This document shows positions 18,478 to 31,483 of a stretch of 58,117 nucleotides of DNA, piece after piece. The DNA is from a virus (lineage: Duplodnaviria > Caudoviricetes), in IMG/VR virus record IMGVR_UViG_3300027007_000030, positions 1-58,117 of that record, one strand, 5' to 3'. Position numbers and translations under genes: made by a program. Within the stretch, counting starts at the first letter, position 1. Every line of letters begins with the position of its first letter. The notes beneath the pieces are model-generated. The model made no database searches and was not told the DNA's origin. It worked only from the letters and a program-made list of their open reading frames with translations.

Positions 18478-19032
18478 ATGACAATGTCCGAAAACAACAG
18501 AGAAGTAGACGTTGACCTGACCGGCGACGAGGAGCCGGACGCTGCTGGTGGCATCGAGTTGGTCGAGGCTGATGACCTCGCTGACCCCGAGTTCGACGCC
18601 GTCGCTGAGGGGAAAGAGGAGGCCAAGCGCGTTCTCAACGCGGTCGGTGGAGATAGCGAGTACGACCGTGCAACGAGCGCGCTTGTGCAGAAACAGCAGA
18701 GCGTCGAGTCGATGTCCCAGCAGTACGAGACGGCGATTCGTAACATCTCGTCGATGGAGCAGCGAGTAGACGGGCTGGACCTCACGATCAGCCGACTTGA
18801 GGATGTCGACGATGAGACGACCGTCTTCCAGCAACTGGAGGGTGGCGTGATCATCGAGGTCGTCGACGACGACACCGAGGGCGTCAAAGAGAGTCTGGAG
18901 ACCGCACGCGAACAGCTAACCGAACAGATAGAAGACCTGCGCGGACAGTCCGAGGCGCTCGAACGCGGGGTGCAGAAGAACCACGCCGCGATCCAGTACC
19001 TCGAGATGTACCGCGACATGAACGAAGAATAG
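18478..19032 (+). CDS. Prefoldin beta-subunit-like protein
   Basis: Coiled coil, then LEDVDDETTVFQQLEGGVIIE hairpin, then coiled coil, as in archaeal prefoldin beta. Confidence 0.65.
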   Translation: MTMSENNREVDVDLTGDEEPDAAGGIELVEADDLADPEFDAVAEGKEEAKRVLNAVGGDSEYDRATSALVQKQQSVESMSQQYETAIRNISSMEQRVDGLDLTISRLEDVDDETTVFQQLEGGVIIEVVDDDTEGVKESLETAREQLTEQIEDLRGQSEALERGVQKNHAAIQYLEMYRDMNEE

Positions 19033-19058: not shown

Positions 19059-20012
19059 ATGGCCGACGCAATTACACTGCAATCCTGGACCTGGACCGAT
19101 TCCGGCACCGAGCCCACGCAAGGTGACGAGAGCTACGCGGCCGGCGAACAGCCGATCGCGGAATACGACAACTGGGCGATGTGGGCGGTGACGACCGACG
19201 TCGACGCCCTGAACGCCGAGCTCGGTGAACACGTCGATAACCACGAGGCCGGCGGCCAGGACGAGATCAACTTGGACGGCCTGAACATCGGCTCAGCCGG
19301 TCAACTCGCCGAAGCTGCTGGCGATGTCGCTATTGAGACGACGGGTGGGACGACCGTTGTAGGGGTCGACACGAGTGCCGCCGACTGGACGACCTTCCCC
19401 GACATCAACGACGCGTTCACTCTCAAGCAGGACATGATACTCGGTGGCGGTCGGACAATCCAGATGAGCGCAGACTCGGGAGAACAGACGCTCGTAGACA
19501 TGTCTGTGACATCCTCGCCGGTAAATGGGTCCGAACAGTCGTACCTGATGGCTCTCGATGGGTCGTCGTACCTGAAAGCCTACGCTGAAGCCGACGGGTC
19601 TGGTGGCATCACGAATACACGGCTCGAATCCCACGTCGACCTACTGGTCGCGACCGGGAACGACCTCACACTCGGCGCTGACCTGGTCGCAGACGACGGC
19701 GAAGTCATCTGGGACGAATCGGCCGGCCACCTCGATCAGGACAGGCTGGAGAACGACAGTCTCACGATCAACGGCGGGAACGCGATCTCTGCGGGTGCGG
19801 TATCACTCGGCGGGTCGGTGACGGTCGGCGTCGAATCCAACTCGATCCAGACAGACGAGCTCGACCTCAGCATCTCGCCGACGTGGACCGGGATGCACAC
19901 GTTCAACGGCGGGGTCACGATGGGCGGCACGCTCGACCTGAACGGGAACGCCCTGGAAGGGACGGACGGCGTCGTCCTCCCGGTTGGGACAGACAAGTAC
20001 GTCACCCAGTAA
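19059..20012 (+). CDS. Tail fibre protein
   Basis: N-terminal W.DSGTEP....Y..GEQP.AEYDNW baseplate-anchor-like motif; Gly/Asp/Thr-rich; PTWTG.HTF segment; position after the baseplate genes. Confidence 0.7.
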   Translation: MADAITLQSWTWTDSGTEPTQGDESYAAGEQPIAEYDNWAMWAVTTDVDALNAELGEHVDNHEAGGQDEINLDGLNIGSAGQLAEAAGDVAIETTGGTTVVGVDTSAADWTTFPDINDAFTLKQDMILGGGRTIQMSADSGEQTLVDMSVTSSPVNGSEQSYLMALDGSSYLKAYAEADGSGGITNTRLESHVDLLVATGNDLTLGADLVADDGEVIWDESAGHLDQDRLENDSLTINGGNAISAGAVSLGGSVTVGVESNSIQTDELDLSISPTWTGMHTFNGGVTMGGTLDLNGNALEGTDGVVLPVGTDKYVTQ

Positions 20013-20013
20013 A

Positions 20014-21276
20014 ATGTCGGCACAGCCAGGCTCTGTATGGGTCGAAGGCGACGCGCTCCACTTCATCGACGGGGGTGGTACCGAGTGGCGCTACACGGGA
20101 GCACTGGAAGGGACGCCATCGGGAGCAGTGCCTGGATCGATCTGGATCGAGTCGACAGACAACCGGATTCACTACATCGATTCATCTGGAGAGGAACGAT
20201 CGACACCCCGGACTGTGGGTGGGTCGGTCGCTGGTGTCAACGGGTCTATCTGGATAGAGAACTCACTGATCAAGTACGTCGACTCAGGGTCGTTCAAGTC
20301 GACCGCACACGACGACGTCGCCCACAGTAACGTCGCACACAATGACAAGTCCTATTCGGACAAGTCCCACTCCGACGACAGTCACAACGACGTCGCCCAC
20401 AGCAATGTCGATCATGGCGACAAATCCTATTCGGATAAGTCCCACTCTGATGACACGCACGACGATATAGCCCACAATAACGCACACACTGACGTTGCTC
20501 ACGGTGATACTGCGCATAGCGACGATACCCACTCTGACGATGCGCATACGGACGACGCGCACGATAACTCACATTCAGACGATAGTCACAACGACAAGTC
20601 GCACGACGACGACGGGCACGACGACGTGTCACACGACAACTCACACTCGGACGATAATCACAATAACTCACACTCAGACGACAGCCACGACGATAGTGAA
20701 CACGACGACGTTTCCGGTAGCACCCCTCACGAGGATAAAGCACACGACGACCTCTCCCACGGCGATCACCAGGACAGTATATTCGCACCACCGGACGACC
20801 ACCACGATTGGTCGCACGAAGACGATGCTCACAACGACGCCCCGTCGTTCAGCGACCACGGAGACATAGCACACGACGATAAATCTCACAGCAACAATCA
20901 CTCGGATAAATCCCACAGCAACAACCACGATAACTGGGCACACCTGAACAAAGTACACGACGACGATTCGCACAACGACAAGAGCCACGGGAACTCGCAC
21001 TCGGATAACCCGTATTCGGACAAATCGCACGACGACAAAGCCCACGACGATACCGCTCACTCAGACGCGAACCACGACAATTCGCACACAGACGGAGCTC
21101 ACTCAGACAAGGCGCACTCCGACGATGCCCACTCTGACGATAGCCACGAAGACGGAAACCATAGTGACACGGCGCACACGGACAAGGCGCACTCTGACGA
21201 TTCGCACTCCGACGATAGCCATCAGGACGGGAGCCACAGTGACACACAGCACACAGATCAACCACAACAGGTATAA
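20014..21276 (+). CDS. His-x-Asp/Asn repeat protein; putative distal fibre/adhesin and radical SAM substrate
   Basis: ATG 1 nt after the fibre-gene stop; three GS(V/I)W(V/I)E..I/L..(I/V)D repeats, then ~64 (H/Y/F)-x-(D/N) units. Confidence 0.8.
   Translation: MSAQPGSVWVEGDALHFIDGGGTEWRYTGALEGTPSGAVPGSIWIESTDNRIHYIDSSGEERSTPRTVGGSVAGVNGSIWIENSLIKYVDSGSFKSTAHDDVAHSNVAHNDKSYSDKSHSDDSHNDVAHSNVDHGDKSYSDKSHSDDTHDDIAHNNAHTDVAHGDTAHSDDTHSDDAHTDDAHDNSHSDDSHNDKSHDDDGHDDVSHDNSHSDDNHNNSHSDDSHDDSEHDDVSGSTPHEDKAHDDLSHGDHQDSIFAPPDDHHDWSHEDDAHNDAPSFSDHGDIAHDDKSHSNNHSDKSHSNNHDNWAHLNKVHDDDSHNDKSHGNSHSDNPYSDKSHDDKAHDDTAHSDANHDNSHTDGAHSDKAHSDDAHSDDSHEDGNHSDTAHTDKAHSDDSHSDDSHQDGSHSDTQHTDQPQQV
20308..21258 (+). 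repeat. Coding degenerate tandem repeat (mostly 15-nt units encoding H-x-D/N-x-x)
   Basis: Direct reading of the translation: HSDDS, HNDKS, HSDKA, HDNS and similar units. Confidence 0.9.
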
Positions 21277-21315
21277 TATCTGAGAACATCGTAATAGGTA
21301 GAGAGCGGAGTAGTC

Positions 21316-22809
21316 ATGACTATACACGTATCAAAAGACACAGGTTGTAACCTGGGGTGCAGCTACTGCTACGAGGAGCCAGATCGCGAGATCAACGAGA
21401 ACGACGTGTCCTCACAGTCACTTGACACTGACGCTGCGATTGCACAGCTCGACGAGTGGAAAGAGCAGTACCCGACAGATGTCCCTGGGCTCCATGGAGG
21501 GGAGCCGCTCCTGATAGACACTGACGACCTGGAAGTCGTGTTCAAGTGGGTCTACGACAACTACGAGTCGGTGAGAGATGGGACACAAGCGTCACACATA
21601 CAGACCAACGGGACGTTGATTAAGGAGCGTCATATCGACCTGTTCAAGCAGTACAACGTTTCTGTCGGCATTTCGTGTGACGGGCCTGTCGAGCTCAACA
21701 GGGAGCGGCTCGCCCGCCCGGAGAAGGATGAGGCCGAAGACGGCTTTACGACCACAGACAGCCTGTCGCAGATCACGAACGACAATATCACTCGGCTGGC
21801 AAACCAGGGGGTCAGCGTCGGGATCATCGTCGTCATTCACGAGACGAACGCTGGGACGGACGAGCGGTTAGAGATCCTCCTCGACTGGATGGACGATCTT
21901 GCGAAACAGGGCGTGAGCGGGCACTACAACCCCGCCCTTCCGTACGACGAGATCCAGACCGAGAACTCGCTATCAGGAGAGCGCCTGAAAGAAGTGTACC
22001 TCCGCACCTACGAGTGGATGAAAGAGGAGCAGTATCGCGAGTGGAACCCGATGAGCGACGCTCGCGACAACTTGCTTGGGAACAAACTCACCAACTGTGT
22101 CAACAACCGCTGTGACGTCTTCAATGCCGGAGCGGCAAAGATCGTCACGGGTGAGGGAGAGACGACTGGCTGTGGCAAAACATGGGGGTCTGTCGGCGAC
22201 GGTGTTCCGTTCCTCCAGGGCCCCTCGAACGAAAGTGAGTACGACGATAACGAGGAGCGGTACGAGATGTTGCAGCAAGTGCCGGGTCCGTACACGGAGG
22301 GTGAGCCGGACCTGGGTGGGTGTAAGGGCTGCAAATACTGGAACGTCTGTCAGGGCGGTTGTCCATCGGGTGCGATCGACCAGGACTTCCGCAACCGGAC
22401 GCGCTGGTGCCCCGCGAAGTACGCGATGTACGAGGCCATCGAGAACGACATGCGGACGCTGTTCCCGAACATCACGCTGATCACCGACTACCCATGGAAC
22501 GCTGAGCTCGCGAAGTACGCCAGCAAATGGGGACTGGACATCAAGCCGTTCGCAGCGATGGACCCCGGAGAAGATGGTCCATCCTCCGTCTGGGGTGGTT
22601 ATTCCCACCCGTGGGGCGGCCCACTGGACCGCGTTCCAGAGGATGTCTTCCCAGATGACTGGCGTGGTGAGAAGGAGTTCATCAAATCGATGTACGACGA
22701 GGAAGTGCTCGAGATCGACGAACACACGCACAACTGGCACGCCGACTCCGATATGGGGGACCAAAACGACGATGGATGGAAGCAGGTCGACGAGGAGACG
22801 GAAGCATGA
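21316..22809 (+). CDS. Radical SAM/SPASM-domain protein (peptide/protein maturase type)
   Basis: CNLGCSYC (CxxxCxxC), HGGEPLL, IQTNGTL, GISCDGP; SPASM cysteines CVNNRC...GC...CKGCKYWNVCQGGCP...WC. Confidence 0.92.
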   Translation: MTIHVSKDTGCNLGCSYCYEEPDREINENDVSSQSLDTDAAIAQLDEWKEQYPTDVPGLHGGEPLLIDTDDLEVVFKWVYDNYESVRDGTQASHIQTNGTLIKERHIDLFKQYNVSVGISCDGPVELNRERLARPEKDEAEDGFTTTDSLSQITNDNITRLANQGVSVGIIVVIHETNAGTDERLEILLDWMDDLAKQGVSGHYNPALPYDEIQTENSLSGERLKEVYLRTYEWMKEEQYREWNPMSDARDNLLGNKLTNCVNNRCDVFNAGAAKIVTGEGETTGCGKTWGSVGDGVPFLQGPSNESEYDDNEERYEMLQQVPGPYTEGEPDLGGCKGCKYWNVCQGGCPSGAIDQDFRNRTRWCPAKYAMYEAIENDMRTLFPNITLITDYPWNAELAKYASKWGLDIKPFAAMDPGEDGPSSVWGGYSHPWGGPLDRVPEDVFPDDWRGEKEFIKSMYDEEVLEIDEHTHNWHADSDMGDQNDDGWKQVDEETEA

Positions 22810-23747
22810 CTGTCACGCCAACGTATGTCGAGGATGCCCCGGAGAACCGTGTCGAACTTGACCCGTTCGCGCGGTTCAACTGGAAGACAGTCGAGAGCAA
22901 AGAGATGTGGAAAGACGCGCTCATCAATGCTGAGATAGCAAAGTCAGAGGCCGAGTGGCGATCGGTTCTGAGCGATAAGACCGACCGGAAGGCGGCGATC
23001 ATCCACATAAACAACTTCAACCGCGAAAAGTGGCTCCGGCGGATGGGTGAGTATGGTCTCGCCTACCGGGACATCCGATACTCGGAGCCGTATGAGGGGT
23101 TCGCACACAAGTTCCACCCGACGACGATAGACGACCCGCGGCGGAACACCTACGCGGTGATCGCGAAGGACGATGATGTCGCGGATAAGATGGAGGAAGC
23201 GGAGTTGGAGATGGAAGGGCACGAACGACATGGGACGGTGGGTAAACTCCTGGGGTTCCCTGACTGTTGCCGTTCACAGTTCAACGACATCTGGGTGGAT
23301 AACTGGGACCGAGGGCTCACGGACCCCATGTACGAGGTTGCGTGTAACACGCCCTCGGCCCGGGAGATAACTGACGCAGACAACATTCGACTCGAGGACC
23401 CCGAGGCGTACACGAACGTCATGTGGCGCTACTTCGGGTGGTCGTTCATCACGCACATCCCGTGCAGTTTCGAGTGTGAGGAGTCAGCCGCCATCGGCGA
23501 GGCGCGCCACGAGATCATGCACGAGGCTGGGTACGGCGGGGCCGCCGACATGCTCTACGGCTGGTTGGACCAGCCCTTCGTCTGGGACGCGCTCCATTCC
23601 ATCGCGAACATCCGAAACATGCACGTGACGGCCACTGCGGGAACGTCATCGTACTGGTCGAAGAAACGGGTCGAATGGCGTCGTGAGCACTTCCCGCAGA
23701 TGAAGCCGTTCTACACAGAGGAAGACCTCGCCCGAATACACTCATGA
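22806..23747 (+). CDS. Cys-rich radical SAM partner (DUF483-like)
   Basis: ATGA overlap with the rSAM stop; GKLLGFPDCC and THIPCSFECEES motifs. Confidence 0.6.
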   Translation: MTVTPTYVEDAPENRVELDPFARFNWKTVESKEMWKDALINAEIAKSEAEWRSVLSDKTDRKAAIIHINNFNREKWLRRMGEYGLAYRDIRYSEPYEGFAHKFHPTTIDDPRRNTYAVIAKDDDVADKMEEAELEMEGHERHGTVGKLLGFPDCCRSQFNDIWVDNWDRGLTDPMYEVACNTPSAREITDADNIRLEDPEAYTNVMWRYFGWSFITHIPCSFECEESAAIGEARHEIMHEAGYGGAADMLYGWLDQPFVWDALHSIANIRNMHVTATAGTSSYWSKKRVEWRREHFPQMKPFYTEEDLARIHS

Positions 23748-25372: not shown

Positions 25373-25807
25373 ATGAACGGTGAGTTCGAGCCGTCGACGA
25401 GACGGAGAGACACCTCCTGGGTGCAGGGGGAGTTGGCAACCGCGTTCGAGAACTTCCCGACTGGCGGCCTCCAGCGTCTCTCGCTGGACTCGCGCTACTA
25501 CCTGACGACACCGGAGGACTTCGATCACATCGTAGCGGAAGATGCGCTCTCACACCGATACTACCGACGGGGGAAGTTCGACTGTGAAAACTTCGCGTTT
25601 GCGTTCAAGAGCATCTGTGACGGTCGATATGGACTGAACAGTGTTGGTGTTCTTCTCGACTACCGGACTCGTGACACCTACAACGTGGTCGTCTACGAGG
25701 AGGGTGGCGTCGACGTGTTCGACCCGGACGCCAGCGAGCTCATCGTTGCTGGTGGCATCGGCATGGAGTCGGCATACAAGATCGACCTCGGTGTGATCAT
25801 TTTATGA
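25373..25807 (+). CDS. Papain/transglutaminase-like (agglutinin C-terminal-like) protein
   Basis: FDCENFAFAF...GLNSVG...TYNVVV...FDP pattern. Confidence 0.5.
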   Translation: MNGEFEPSTRRRDTSWVQGELATAFENFPTGGLQRLSLDSRYYLTTPEDFDHIVAEDALSHRYYRRGKFDCENFAFAFKSICDGRYGLNSVGVLLDYRTRDTYNVVVYEEGGVDVFDPDASELIVAGGIGMESAYKIDLGVIIL

Positions 25808-29275: not shown

Positions 29276-29377
29276 GATGGAGACGCCGCGATCACTCATA
29301 GGGTGGCGTATCCCTCTCGCTGGCTCGCTCACGGTCGATCAACAGATGCGGTTCGGAGAATCAACGGAGTGTCAAGA

Positions 29378-31483
29378 ATGACAAAGATCGACCTATTCAC
29401 CGACTACGTCGAATATCTCCAGTCAAAGGAGATAGCGTACGCGGAGACGTACATCCCGTACTACCTGTGTAGTGTGGGGTGTCACATGCTGAACATCAGG
29501 CAACAGAGCCTCAAACGGAGCGGTGAGCGCGGCATCTATGCCGAGCTCGGGTCGTACCCGAACCTCCGCCTGAACACCATGATGGTCGCGCCACCCGGCT
29601 TCTGTATGTCCCCGTCGACGAAGATCAAGACGGCGGACGGCGTCAAGAAGGCGGCTGACGTCGAGGTGGGAGAACGACTCCTCTCGGCGAACGGCGAGGA
29701 GAACGTGCTCACGAACAAGTGGAGCACGCGAAACAACATCCTCGTGTTCCGACCACTCGACCTGCGGGTGAGCCCGGAGCACAAGGTGAAGACCACCACC
29801 GGCTGGCTTCCAGCCGGTGAGATCGATGTAGGCGAAAAGATCGAGGCACAGTACACGAGAGAAGACATCGAACTACTTGCCTGGTGGCTCACCGAGGGCC
29901 GCTGGGAGAACAAGTACGACGACAGCCGTAACTCCGGACTCGTCATCTCGAACGGTGACGACGAGGAGGTAGAGCGACTCCGTGAAATCGCCGACCACTT
30001 CGGTTGCACGATGACCGAGATGGGCAAGCGAGAGTACCGGTTCGCGATGAAACCCGACCGCGAGAAGAACAGCGCGAGCGAACTACTCCGCGAGTTCGGT
30101 CTGGGCAACGTAGAGGGAGCACTCGACAAGTTCCTACCCGAACGGGTCTTCGACATGGAACCCGAGGCGAGGCGGCTCCTGTTCAAGACGATGGTCGACG
30201 GCGACGGTTGGGTTATCGACAGCGGTGATGTCTGGTACTCCACGTCGTCGCCGGACCTCGTCGAAGGACTCGGGCGGTTACTCGACGGCTTCGGGGTAGA
30301 GTACAGCGTGTACGAGCACGAGGTTGACGACTACCCCGTCAACTACCGACTCCGGGTCAAGAGTGAATACCGAGAGTGGTTCCACGAACCGGTCACGAAG
30401 GACCAGTTCAGTGCGACCGTCACCGTAGACGCCATCGAGGCGAAGAAGGGCAAGTTCCATACGATCGACTTCGAGACGACGCAGAGTCACTTCATCGCGA
30501 ACAACGCGGTGATCCACAACAGCAAGACGTTCTTCATGGAACTGATGCTGGACCCGGACATCGGCATCATCGGCGGGACGACGATCCCGACGAAGATGGT
30601 CCAGAACATGACCGAGGCGGCGTTCGTCGGCTCCGACGGTGGGGGCGACGACGACGACTACGACATGGGCCTCGCCGAGAAGTACAAGGAGGGTATTCTC
30701 GGCTGTGAGGAGTTCGACTCCCTGGCGAAGGTCATGCAGACCGACCACTCGGGGAACCTCGACAACATGCTCCTGACGGCACTCGACTCCGGTCGCGTCC
30801 GGAAAGACATGGCCCACGCGAACATCAACTACGACACCGACGTGACGCTGTTCGCGGCCACACAGCCAATGCGGATGGACCTGACGTCCGGGTTCGCCCG
30901 GCGGTTCATCTTCATGAAGTTCTACCCGTCGCCTGAGCAGATCACCGAGATGCGCCAGTCTCGACGGCGTGGACGGGGTCGAGATGCTGACTTCGATCAG
31001 CTCCAGAAGTTCAAGAACGAGCTCGGGATGAAGTTCGACTCGAAGGTTGTCAACATCGACCAGGTCCGTGGCCTCGAAAAGCTCGACAAGATCTTCGACG
31101 ACGTGCGAGTGCCGCACTTCGAGGAGAAGGTCTACGAGCGGATGGCGATGGGCTATTCCGTTCTCAAGGAGGGGTCGGTCGAGCAGGACGCGGACACGAC
31201 CTACCTGGAGATACAGCCGACACGCGAGCTACGGCACCTGCTCCGACAGTCGATGGAGTGGCGGGAGTCCCTCATGCAGGGCGTCGAGGGCGACCAGGTG
31301 ATCTCGGTCCTGCGCAACACGGAGGAGAAGTCGATGCCCAAGGACGAGCTACAATCGTTCCTCCAGATGTACTCGATGTCCGGTCCGCAGGTGAACAAAA
31401 TAATCCACGACATGCGCCGCAATCGGATGATCGACACGGAGGTAGACGACAACCAGACAACACACGTCCTCCTGAAGGAATAG
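29378..31483 (+). CDS. MCM-like AAA+ helicase with an intein
   Basis: Spliced Walker A APPGF/SKT, TEAAFVGS, GILGCEEFD (Walker B), LFAATQP, ARRF (Arg finger), C-terminal wHTH-like region. Confidence 0.8.
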   Translation: MTKIDLFTDYVEYLQSKEIAYAETYIPYYLCSVGCHMLNIRQQSLKRSGERGIYAELGSYPNLRLNTMMVAPPGFCMSPSTKIKTADGVKKAADVEVGERLLSANGEENVLTNKWSTRNNILVFRPLDLRVSPEHKVKTTTGWLPAGEIDVGEKIEAQYTREDIELLAWWLTEGRWENKYDDSRNSGLVISNGDDEEVERLREIADHFGCTMTEMGKREYRFAMKPDREKNSASELLREFGLGNVEGALDKFLPERVFDMEPEARRLLFKTMVDGDGWVIDSGDVWYSTSSPDLVEGLGRLLDGFGVEYSVYEHEVDDYPVNYRLRVKSEYREWFHEPVTKDQFSATVTVDAIEAKKGKFHTIDFETTQSHFIANNAVIHNSKTFFMELMLDPDIGIIGGTTIPTKMVQNMTEAAFVGSDGGGDDDDYDMGLAEKYKEGILGCEEFDSLAKVMQTDHSGNLDNMLLTALDSGRVRKDMAHANINYDTDVTLFAATQPMRMDLTSGFARRFIFMKFYPSPEQITEMRQSRRRGRGRDADFDQLQKFKNELGMKFDSKVVNIDQVRGLEKLDKIFDDVRVPHFEEKVYERMAMGYSVLKEGSVEQDADTTYLEIQPTRELRHLLRQSMEWRESLMQGVEGDQVISVLRNTEEKSMPKDELQSFLQMYSMSGPQVNKIIHDMRRNRMIDTEVDDNQTTHVLLKE
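29603..30520 (+). mobile_element. Intein (306 aa) with LAGLIDADG-type homing endonuclease
   Basis: Starts CMSPSTKIKTADG, block B VSPEHKV, LAWWLTEG and TMVDGDG motifs, ends HFIANNAVIHN followed by Ser. Confidence 0.92.

Follow-up and report, generated by a model that had tools for sequence, protein, structure and literature searches.

The chain of the T4 fibre protein gp37 reportedly runs out to a receptor-binding tip and then returns, as is said of the structure described in 2010. Seven iron atoms, bound by histidines, are located along the gp37 needle, according to the accessible part of the source (PMC6957217). A second related system is the 'rSAM module' of the Thermus phages Cumys and phiMa, for which the linkage of three genes was noted and a functional connection inferred (PMC11437467, Viruses 2024). 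In the available text of that report, a role in DNA modifications is proposed, and homologues of the radical SAM (rSAM) and DUF483 proteins are reported beside deazapurine genes in cyanobacteria. The third system comprises the triceptide synthases, which link an aromatic residue 1 to the C-beta of residue 3; the accessible portion of PMC11499958 describes His-C2 cross-links on HTK and HAA motifs and gives YDR as the native motif of ChlB.

Here, we describe a histidine-repeat protein encoded in a viral stretch of 58,117 nucleotides (the window; IMG/VR record IMGVR_UViG_3300027007_000030), together with the enzyme gene that follows it. Our main reading, to which we give a probability of roughly 0.5, is that the repeat chain folds back on itself and that the neighbouring rSAM enzyme acts on it. 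No publication connecting a radical SAM enzyme with phage fibres turned up in a literature search.

Gene neighbourhood and fibre identity

The gene of the array protein (420 residues; 20014-21276, on the plus strand, as are all features given below) starts with an ATG at 20014 and comes after genes for sheath, tape measure, hub, baseplate J and gp48-like proteins. Just after the baseplate genes lies the gene of a fibre protein of 317 residues (19059..20012), whose TAA stop codon sits 1 nt upstream of the array-gene ATG. In fused homologues, a linker matching the C-terminal LPVG-x-DKY motif of this upstream protein stands in front of the His-array domain, and relatives of the upstream protein were found upstream in two of the related loci described below (L008 and L007). 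The upstream protein and the array protein probably belong to one fibre, the former as its proximal part. In phage Cumys, the array gene comes after baseplate and 'tail collar fiber' genes. PHROG scans of the neighbours in related loci were mostly empty, with a tail fibre match in L021 and a tape measure match in L016. A distant DNA search of a phage collection matched only baseplate J, in the Halobacterium phages phiH and ChaoS9. The array protein itself was assigned to no Pfam, PHROG or NCBIfam family by profile searches. It is best explained as the distal tail-fibre component of a myovirus of haloarchaea, present in IMG/VR as a provirus record.

Unit organization and mirror symmetry of the array

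The protein consists of an N-terminal beta domain (residues 1–98; 20014..20307), with three repeats of about 35 residues each, and a His array of 322 residues (20308-21273) that extends from residue 99 to the C-terminus. Cutting the array at every His and at three in-phase Tyr yields 64 units, in which a [H/Y]-x-[D/N] motif recurs every four to five residues (63 motifs; 48 H-x-D, 12 H-x-N and three Y-x-D). The original prediction had counted 64 units and placed a central one at 20767-20799, and both the parse and the coordinates are confirmed.

The lengths of units 1–29 are the same as those of units 63–35 in all 29 pairs. Each arm of the putative hairpin contains 145 residues: arm 1 (units 1–29) spans 20308..20742 and arm 2 (units 35–63) spans 20815..21249. 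Mirrored units differ in length solely in the stretch of units 30–34 around the centre, a 24-residue region (20743..20814) that would form the tip and that includes the central Pro/Phe/Ile unit. The last unit and a conserved QP-x-x-V end make up the C-terminal tail (21250..21276, with the stop codon). Mirrored spacings are equal in 30 of 31 pairs, a symmetry matched by none of 2000 shuffles of the spacings. The four-residue H-x-N-x units fall at 12, 18, 23 and 25 and at 39, 41, 46 and 52, exactly where they had been placed, and all pairs sum to 64; a ninth four-residue unit, unit 34, is not H-x-N-x. The Pro-containing inserts, earlier said to be 'roughly' mirrored between unit 28 and units 35–36, are indeed mirrored, but that wording needs correction: the nine-residue Pro units are 28 and 36, which is an exact mirror.

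An inverted repeat in the DNA was considered as a source of the symmetry and rejected, as a reverse complement would not encode His and no inverted repeats are present in 20290-21280; the symmetry is therefore confined to the protein level. The array DNA carries tandem repeats of 15, 30 and 75 nt. The 75-nt repeat is found in arm 1 (20308-20489, 2.4 copies) and in the mirrored place in arm 2 (21106-21245, 1.9 copies), at the base of each arm.

Mirrored units are also complementary in charge, an observation that is new here. Each of the 14 Lys residues at position 4 of a unit is opposed by the position-4 Asp of unit 64-i, and 14 such pairs were reached in 0 of 100000 shuffles. The twelve other registers tested gave 2–7 Lys-Asp pairs out of 8–13, and the full 14 of 14 was obtained only at a pair sum of 64. 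Some of these pairs are non-independent because of the two 75-nt duplications, leaving about 11 independent pairs. Among 71 homologues, the complementarity of residue classes at position 4 did not differ between the mirrored and shifted registers.

Predicted structure

The N-terminal domain is predicted by AF2 with high confidence (pLDDT 92–98), and its strands are arranged in groups of four, four and three. Its sequence weakly resembles designed 'Cake' propeller blades (E 2.3e-6). In a wide VIA-align comparison the best fold match, to a bacteriocin/lectin chain, had a Z of only 4.0, and Foldseek found no PDB match with an E of 0.001 or below, the array itself being unmodelled. The domain is accordingly assigned no fold more specific than three four-stranded repeats. 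The array has a pLDDT of 41–51 in the AF2 monomer, with no secondary structure assigned. The C-terminal tail is modelled with a pLDDT of 85 and contains a strand at residues 416–419 that returns to the N-terminal domain. A short homologue (P0010) was predicted in the same way: its array has a pLDDT of 53–66, and its last block, at 90, likewise forms a strand back at the N-terminal domain. P417 is invariant or nearly so across the homologue alignments. Monomer prediction, which had been suggested as a check on the hairpin, thus brought the C-terminal strand back to the N-terminal domain in two models but left the array unmodelled, and the hairpin itself appears in neither the model of the array protein nor that of P0010.

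Symmetry and variation among homologues

The fibre family contains 516 cluster representatives at E up to 1e-3. An ungapped mirror test was applied to 116 listed homologues with at least 16 motifs (of 120 listed, four were left out for being too short), giving p<0.05 in 51 and p<0.01 in 40. Among 15 fibre ORFs from related loci, p<0.05 was obtained in one only. In the fibre of Thermus phage Cumys, 14 of 26 mirrored pairs are equal, a value reached by 49 of 5000 shuffles. From these results, mirror symmetry is common in the family, and is not demonstrable everywhere by the ungapped test. Homologues had been expected to keep paired indels on both arms and to vary at the centre; mirrored lengths in the 51 homologues and a variable centre agree with this, and among the locus ORFs mirroring could be shown in a single case.

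Unit lengths in the fibre ORFs of related loci range from three to seven residues. In 64 of 84 relatives, the largest irregular segment is found in the central fifth of the array. The central segment is highly variable (54 distinct sequences among 60) and Pro-rich (19% Pro versus 5% elsewhere), in keeping with the variable tip that was proposed for the window protein.

Fold-back model

The length symmetry, the Lys-Asp pairing, the mirrored duplications and the AF2 tail return together give good support to an in-register fold-back. On this evidence from sequence and model, the chain very probably folds back with unit i against unit 64-i, and the original prediction of this pairing is strongly supported also by the mirrored indels and the variable central segment. 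The array would sit inserted between the last two strands of the N-terminal beta domain. The chain would leave the domain, extend 145 residues out to the 24-residue Pro/hydrophobic tip and run 145 residues back, antiparallel, and the QP-x-x-V C-terminal strand would then close the domain. Selection is envisaged to keep the register, with indels and five-unit duplications retained in mirrored pairs and a position-4 Lys always opposite a position-4 Asp. The array would adopt a beta-hairpin geometry, and the tip may serve as the host contact.

Association with a radical SAM enzyme

The gene of a radical SAM/SPASM enzyme (497 residues; 21316..22809), the proposed maturase of the array, begins 40 nt downstream of the array gene. 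The enzyme contains a CX3CX2C motif at residue 11 and a SPASM CX2CX5CX3C motif at residue 336, with more Cys at 261, 266, 286 and 365, and it matches the Pfam Radical_SAM family with 48.5 bits versus a cut-off of 29.5. The next gene (22806..23747) encodes a DUF483-like protein with Cys motifs, of 313 residues when read from an ATG overlapping the rSAM stop codon; its match to Pfam DUF483 is weak (E 5e-4, below the cut-off). Neither of these conserved downstream genes figured in the original prediction.

A single rSAM protein query retrieved no related loci; closer alignments gave eight through the rSAM and ten through the fibre. The array ORF ends just before the rSAM gene in five of the eight loci found through the rSAM, and each of the ten found through the fibre has an rSAM relative downstream (E 1e-26 to 1e-65), the G+C content of these loci ranging from 32 to 67%. 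Array and rSAM genes are adjacent in 15 of the 18 related loci and in Cumys, and every array examined (that of the window, those of the five and ten loci, and that of Cumys) adjoins an rSAM gene. Relatives of the DUF483-like protein adjoin the rSAM in 8/8 haloarchaeal-type and 7/10 bacterial-type loci. In Cumys, a cultured Thermus phage, Cumys_13, Cumys_12 and Cumys_11 are relatives of the array protein, the rSAM and the DUF483-like protein, respectively, in the same order. The third of these is annotated as a 'DUF483-domain protein', and Cumys_13 is a His-array protein of the same family.

No array relative was found in the complete genome of Thermus phage phiLo, or in three of the loci (L005, L006 and L009) and their genomes, despite the presence of an rSAM with a DUF483-like or methyltransferase partner in each. 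The rSAM family is therefore not tied to an array substrate only. The occurrence of the pair without an array in phiLo and in three cellular genomes would fit a fold-back fibre that is left unmodified and stabilized by salt bridges and hydrogen bonds; the rSAM/DUF483-like pair would then be a separate module, serving for instance to modify DNA or nucleotides, that merely travels alongside. The published proposal of DNA modification and the deazapurine neighbours in cyanobacteria (available text of PMC11437467) also favour such a module, as do some clusters of the DUF483-like protein that are fused to methyltransferases; the atlas clusters of this protein are mostly viral. We nevertheless consider an independent module unlikely. 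The dependence is one-way, an rSAM being found beside every array examined, and the linkage spans archaeal and bacterial viruses with G+C contents of 32 to 67%, for which chance synteny is hard to credit. Moreover, the closest relatives of this SPASM-type enzyme are peptide- or protein-modifying enzymes, and [H/Y/F]-x-D matches the substrate grammar of the cyclophane-enzyme clade.

Proposed cross-link and the role of the histidines

The best NCBIfam matches of the window rSAM are the cyclophane-forming maturases AmcB (86.2 bits versus a cut-off of 425), DynA (83.9 versus 450) and YhhB (83.8 versus 445), with the anaerobic sulfatase maturase nearly as high. The best solved relative is the radical SAM domain of ChlB. 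The enzyme reaches the cut-off of no characterised cyclophane synthase, and the same applies to six fibre-linked relatives. With scores far below every family cut-off, the window enzyme belongs to a separate rSAM family; for the same reason, and because the sulfatase maturase scores nearly equally, the cross-link chemistry is a guess from neighbours.

The conserved downstream rSAM/SPASM and DUF483-like genes suggest enzymatic cross-linking, instead of or besides metal binding. The rSAM/SPASM enzyme, helped by the DUF483-like protein, would modify the [His/Tyr]-x-[Asp/Asn] motifs. The likeliest chemistry would be a three-residue aromatic-to-C-beta cross-link of the triceptide type, and the modified fibre would be a long filament, stiff and chemically robust, that touches the host with its variable tip. 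The balance tips slightly towards action of the rSAM on the array, judged from the gene linkage. The nature of the product is more tentative, and a His/Tyr-to-Asp/Asn C-beta cyclophane is put forward at somewhat less than even odds. Similarly tentative is the fuller picture of the virion protein as a giant RiPP-like substrate, in which the rSAM/SPASM enzyme and its DUF483-like partner would install up to 63 aromatic-to-C-beta staples on a hairpin of 145+145 residues.

The histidines had originally been assigned to the metal-binding core of a gp37-like needle. Three fold-back chains would associate, with His and Asp (i, i+2) holding a line of metal, and the rSAM and DUF483-like genes would serve elsewhere. 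Trimers are the usual form of tail fibres, His and Asp are common and classic metal ligands, and in H-x-D the two side chains point to one side of a strand, like those of H-x-H in gp37. The fold-back topology required is supported by the unit lengths and the Lys-Asp pairs, and gp37, with its seven His-bound iron atoms (PMC6957217, accessible part), provides a precedent. However, no H-x-H motif is present in the 322-residue array, and no relation to gp37 was found by Pfam, PHROG or PDB-sequence searches, with no gp37 chain at E up to 1. In relatives, the unit motif is [His/Tyr/Phe]-x-Asp. Their in-phase non-His units carry Phe or Tyr in 54 of 61 cases (Phe 28, Tyr 26), and Phe and Tyr together account for about 1% of the remaining array positions. 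A role as metal ligand does not fit this pattern, as Phe, the commonest replacement of His, is unable to bind metal. The three- to seven-residue units of relatives are also hard to reconcile with a regular core that has each His pointing inward, and the rSAM beside each array would be left unexplained. The metal-binding core was thus not upheld, and a needle of this kind appears improbable.

A low-complexity tail that is disordered, acidic and rich in His, arose by tandem duplication and is symmetric by accident would agree with the low AF2 confidence, the lack of assigned secondary structure and the 15-, 30- and 75-nt repeats in the DNA, but is very improbable given that 0/2000 and 0/100000 shuffles reach the symmetry and the charge pairing, that the symmetry recurs in 51/116 homologues with the tip central in 64/84, and that the duplications are themselves mirrored.

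Implications

If this reading holds, the mirrored repeats, paired duplications and paired charges show growth of a long hairpin in register, so that the architecture of the fibre would be readable from sequence alone. If the fold-back and the enzymatic modification are both correct, the filament would be a covalently rigidified tail structure in archaeal and bacterial viruses from salt lakes to hot springs, with a bearing on virion survival in saturated brine or in water at 70 °C. It would be the first radical-SAM-cross-linked viral structural protein and by far the largest substrate of such chemistry, and radical SAM peptide cross-linking would reach beyond small natural products to the structural proteins of viruses. 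The 516 cluster representatives would define a widespread, unannotated fibre family outside Pfam and PHROG. The three-gene phage module, for which DNA modification has been suggested (PMC11437467, available text), would gain a concrete candidate substrate, and the array would provide a natural scaffold with dozens of enzymatic staples.

Comparison with known systems

The module of Cumys and phiMa, phages that offer a harmless cultured system on T. thermophilus HB8, has the same gene content, with a protein of unknown function, an rSAM and a DUF483 protein encoded consecutively in the same order as at 20014-21276, 21316-22809 and 22806-23747. The published account reads the module as DNA modification, whereas here the Cumys_13-type protein is regarded as a fibre and the likely substrate; in the available text of that account (PMC11437467) the word 'histidine' occurs 0 times, and no His repeats, fibre position or symmetry are described.

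T4 gp37 resembles the array protein in being a distal fibre with regularly spaced His along the shaft and a chain that runs out to the tip and back, a course that for the array protein is deduced from its sequence. The array differs in having [H/Y]-x-[D/N] every four to five residues rather than H-x-H, in its strictly mirrored arms of 145 residues, in the replacement of His by Phe or Tyr in relatives, and in that the array genes examined always adjoin an rSAM/SPASM gene.

The anaerobic sulfatase maturases (anSMEs) are also SPASM radical SAM enzymes that act on a folded or large protein, and they rank first or second among the family and PDB matches. The reaction of an anSME is the oxidation of a single Cys or Ser within a sulfatase motif. 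In contrast, no sulfatase-type motif is conserved in the array, where the conserved features are an aromatic residue 1 and an Asp or Asn at residue 3.

The triceptide systems (HtkB, HaaB, ChlB, XyeB, GrrM/OscB, YhhB and AmcB) share with the window an rSAM/SPASM gene beside a candidate substrate in which an aromatic-x-x motif recurs. In these systems, His is known to serve as residue 1 (PMC11499958, accessible portion), and the array offers 63 [H/Y]-x-[D/N] motifs. The array module differs in lacking a protease or exporter, with a DUF483-like protein as the partner, and its candidate substrate is not a short leader-core peptide but a 420-residue virion fibre with a folded domain, encoded within a block of tail genes.

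Mirror symmetry of the histidine array

The array lies in the 420-residue product of a plus-strand open reading frame (20014–21276, from an ATG at 20014) that has no match to any Pfam, PHROG or NCBIfam family. Cuts at every histidine and at three in-phase tyrosines divide the array into 64 units. In this parse, the eight four-residue H-x-N-x units fall exactly where the original prediction placed them, with every pair summing to 64, and the proposed mirror symmetry is stronger than first noted: when units 1–29 are set against units 63–35, all 29 pairs agree in length. The two arms, each exactly 145 residues long, flank an irregular centre of 24 residues. The nine-residue units are 28 and 36, and unit 34 is a further four-residue unit that had been missed. 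Mirrored spacings are equal in 30 of 31 cases, which none of 2000 shuffles reached. Inverted repeats were not found in the DNA of the array region, and the mirror is therefore present in the protein only.

Probable pairing of the two arms

Lysine at position 4 of a unit is opposite a position-4 aspartate of unit 64-i in 14 of 14 cases (about 11 of them independent, owing to duplications), compared with only 2–7 of 8–13 in the twelve registers on either side (pair sums 58–70); 14 such pairs were reached in 0 of 100,000 shuffles. Where position 4 is a hydrophobic Val or Ile, the residue opposite is Thr, Gly, Ala or Trp. Tandem Repeats Finder detected 75-nt (five-unit) tandem repeats of 2.4 copies at 20308–20489 and 1.9 copies at 21106–21245. 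Both are placed at mirrored bases of the arms, and matched duplications on both strands of the hairpin appear to have extended it.

In an AF2 model of the array protein, built from a 76-row alignment, residues 1–100 (pLDDT 92–98) fold into groups of 4, 4 and 3 strands, the array is without secondary structure (pLDDT 41–51), and the last ten residues form a strand (pLDDT up to 85). The homologue P0010 gave the same pattern. From the sequence and the AF2 output we infer that the conserved C-terminal QP-x-x-V is the fourth strand of N-domain repeat 3 and that the array, by comparison with repeat 2, is located where repeat 3 would pass into that strand. With the fourth strand supplied by QP-x-x-V, the array would be inserted between two adjacent antiparallel strands, an arrangement that would force its ends together. 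An in-register fold-back of the array is well supported, with a probability of about 0.85.

The fibre family and its proposed variable tip

The family comprises 184 protein matches in a word-indexed search and 516 cluster representatives at E values up to 1e-3 in an exhaustive search, with members that either stand alone or are joined to N-terminal portions of a fibre as long as ~1,000 residues. The mirror test, applied to the 116 of 120 homologues whose motifs were numerous enough, gave p<0.05 in 51 and p<0.01 in 40, and the spacing strings of some homologues are perfect palindromes. Of the 15 fibre ORFs taken from the retrieved loci, just one reached p<0.05 in this test, which is ungapped and handles badly the many arrays here with 3- to 7-residue units. 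In Cumys_13, the related protein of Thermus phage Cumys, 14 of 26 mirrored pairs are equal, a value reached by 49 of 5000 shuffles. No residue-class complementarity was seen across 71 homologues.

Of the 84 proteins in which one irregular segment is uniquely the largest, 64 have it in the central fifth of the array, compared with 20% expected. Tip segments are distinct in 54 of 60 cases and are enriched in Pro (19% versus 5%) and in Phe; the central segment fits a variable turn or tip. In some relatives (P0026, P0004 and others), the tip contains a Cys pair around Pro-Pro, in the pattern C-L-D-P-P-E-C, which suggests a disulfide-closed loop.

Viral context and the split fibre

The window (58,117 bases) is a provirus record from IMG/VR with a CheckV completeness estimate of 55%, a G+C content of 59.5% and acidic proteins. 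Genes for a tail sheath, tape measure, baseplate hub, baseplate J, Mu gp48-like baseplate protein and prefoldin-like protein lie 5' of the array. At the DNA level, the phage collection searched contains no relatives other than the baseplate J genes of phiH and ChaoS9, two Halobacterium phages (~65% identity). Together, the sheath-to-baseplate gene set and these matches identify a haloarchaeal-type myovirus, and the array gene occupies the site expected for distal tail-fibre genes.

The preceding fibre ORF (317 residues; 19059–20012, plus strand) ends with LPVG-x-DKY, the linker that precedes the array-protein domain in many fused homologues. The two ORFs are parted, precisely at this linker, by the stop codon TAA and one base before the ATG at 20014. 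The fibre here is therefore split into two translationally coupled genes (19059–20012 and 20014–21276). Split and fused architectures are both natural, and several homologues, too, begin directly with the first beta-domain repeat.

Between the baseplate and fibre genes, an acidic coiled-coil protein of 184 residues (18478–19032, plus strand) matches Pfam Prefoldin_2 (E 1.6e-8; 34.9 bits, cut-off 27.6) and may be a fibre assembly chaperone; the related locus L008 contains a relative at the equivalent place. On the 3' side of the three-gene module, a 144-residue ORF (25373–25807, plus strand) matches the ricin-type lectin C-terminal domain PF18022 (28.4 bits, cut-off 27.1) and may be a second host-binding protein. 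A 726-residue ORF (29303–31483, plus strand) contains a LAGLIDADG domain.

Radical SAM and DUF483-like neighbours

A radical SAM (rSAM) enzyme of 497 residues (21316–22809, plus strand) is encoded 40 nt 3' of the array gene. Its CX3CX2C motif lies at residue 11 and its SPASM motif, CX2CX5CX3C, at residue 336. The start of the next gene (22806–23747, plus strand), for a 313-residue Cys-motif protein weakly related to DUF483, overlaps the rSAM stop codon.

Eight true loci were obtained with an alignment of rSAM relatives as query. An array protein ends just 5' of the rSAM gene in five, and the other three (two nanohaloarchaeal MAGs and one Halorussus plasmid) contain rSAM and a DUF483-like gene without an array. 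An alignment of bacterial-type fibres yielded ten viral contigs (G+C 32–67%), all with an rSAM relative closely 3' of the fibre (at 3 kb in L021 and L022) and seven also with a DUF483-like gene; contig ends cut two of the remaining three. The large phage contigs L021 (242 kb) and L022 (172 kb), both of 32% G+C, have the order fibre, DUF483-like gene, two other genes and rSAM, and their arrays contain many Tyr/Phe-x-D units and many three-residue units. The order in the cultured phage Cumys is baseplate, tail collar fibre, hypothetical protein, His-array protein (itself annotated 'hypothetical'), rSAM protein and DUF483-domain protein. Phage phiLo and the three cellular genomes noted above have rSAM with a DUF483-like or methyltransferase partner, and no array relative was detected in them with this query. 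The dependence is therefore one-sided: the enzyme accompanies every array seen, whereas the array does not accompany every enzyme.

A 2024 paper on Thermus phages described the rSAM protein, the DUF483 protein and a third unknown protein as a locus common to Cumys and a second phage, phiMa, reported similar loci in prophages, and suggested a role in an unknown DNA modification (PMC11437467). The word 'histidine' is absent from its text. Nothing linking rSAM to a phage fibre, His repeat or virion-protein cyclophane was found in the literature searched, subscription-journal papers aside.

A conserved H-A-D-S, itself an H-x-D unit, forms the C-terminal end of the rSAM enzymes (22660–22806 in the window) and may be a pseudo-substrate or self-substrate. 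In the array-less locus L005 (2434–4260), this motif is repeated in the C-terminal extension of rSAM, which closes with a Cys-rich tail. Several homologues of the enzyme (P0127, P0155, P0160, P0168, P0199 and P0232) carry Pfam domains of the intein or LAGLIDADG type, making the family a frequent intein host.

Enzyme chemistry and the repeated motif

The top NCBIfam matches of rSAM are AmcB, DynA, YhhB and anaerobic sulfatase maturase, followed by GrrM/OscB, XyeB and FxsB; the first three are cyclophane-forming maturases, and every score is far under the cut-off. Six fibre-linked relatives display the same pattern. Among solved structures, ChlB, a triceptide synthase, is closest to the family profile, and a sulfatase maturase comes next. 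In aromatic-x-x motifs, triceptide synthases link residue 1, through its aromatic ring, to the C-beta of residue 3; YDR is the native motif of ChlB, and His is proven as residue 1 for HtkB on HTK and HaaB on HAA (PMC11499958).

The positions cross-linked in triceptide systems, residues 1 and 3, are exactly those that are invariant in the array (H-x-D 48, H-x-N 12, Y-x-D 3). Of 61 in-phase x-x-D units of relatives without His at residue 1, 54 have Phe (28) or Tyr (26) there, and these two make up ~1% of the remaining array positions. A change from His to Phe takes two nucleotide substitutions, and Phe is unable to bind metal, so selection at the His position is for an aromatic ring, in agreement with the substrate grammar of the triceptide-type enzyme clade. 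An aromatic residue 1 would also fit an aromatic stacking ladder. The most likely full account is a distal fibre that folds back and whose [H/Y/F]-x-[D/N] units would be substrates of the adjacent rSAM/SPASM enzyme. Within it, the enzyme-substrate linkage is somewhat favoured, and cyclophane chemistry on the array is a more tentative proposal.

Comparison with known systems

The original prediction invoked the T4 gp37 needle, in which seven iron atoms are bound by His along its length (PMC6957217). Its fold-back topology holds, and the likeness is one of topology only: the array, unlike gp37, has no H-x-H motif, and no sequence or family relation to gp37 was found. A gp37-like core of His and metal is not supported, although the array His and Asp may still bind metal ions. 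An rSAM-modified fold-back fibre is open to direct test in a cultured Thermus phage. As read here, the array system joins fold-back fibres to rSAM cross-linking, each already known, in a new combination.
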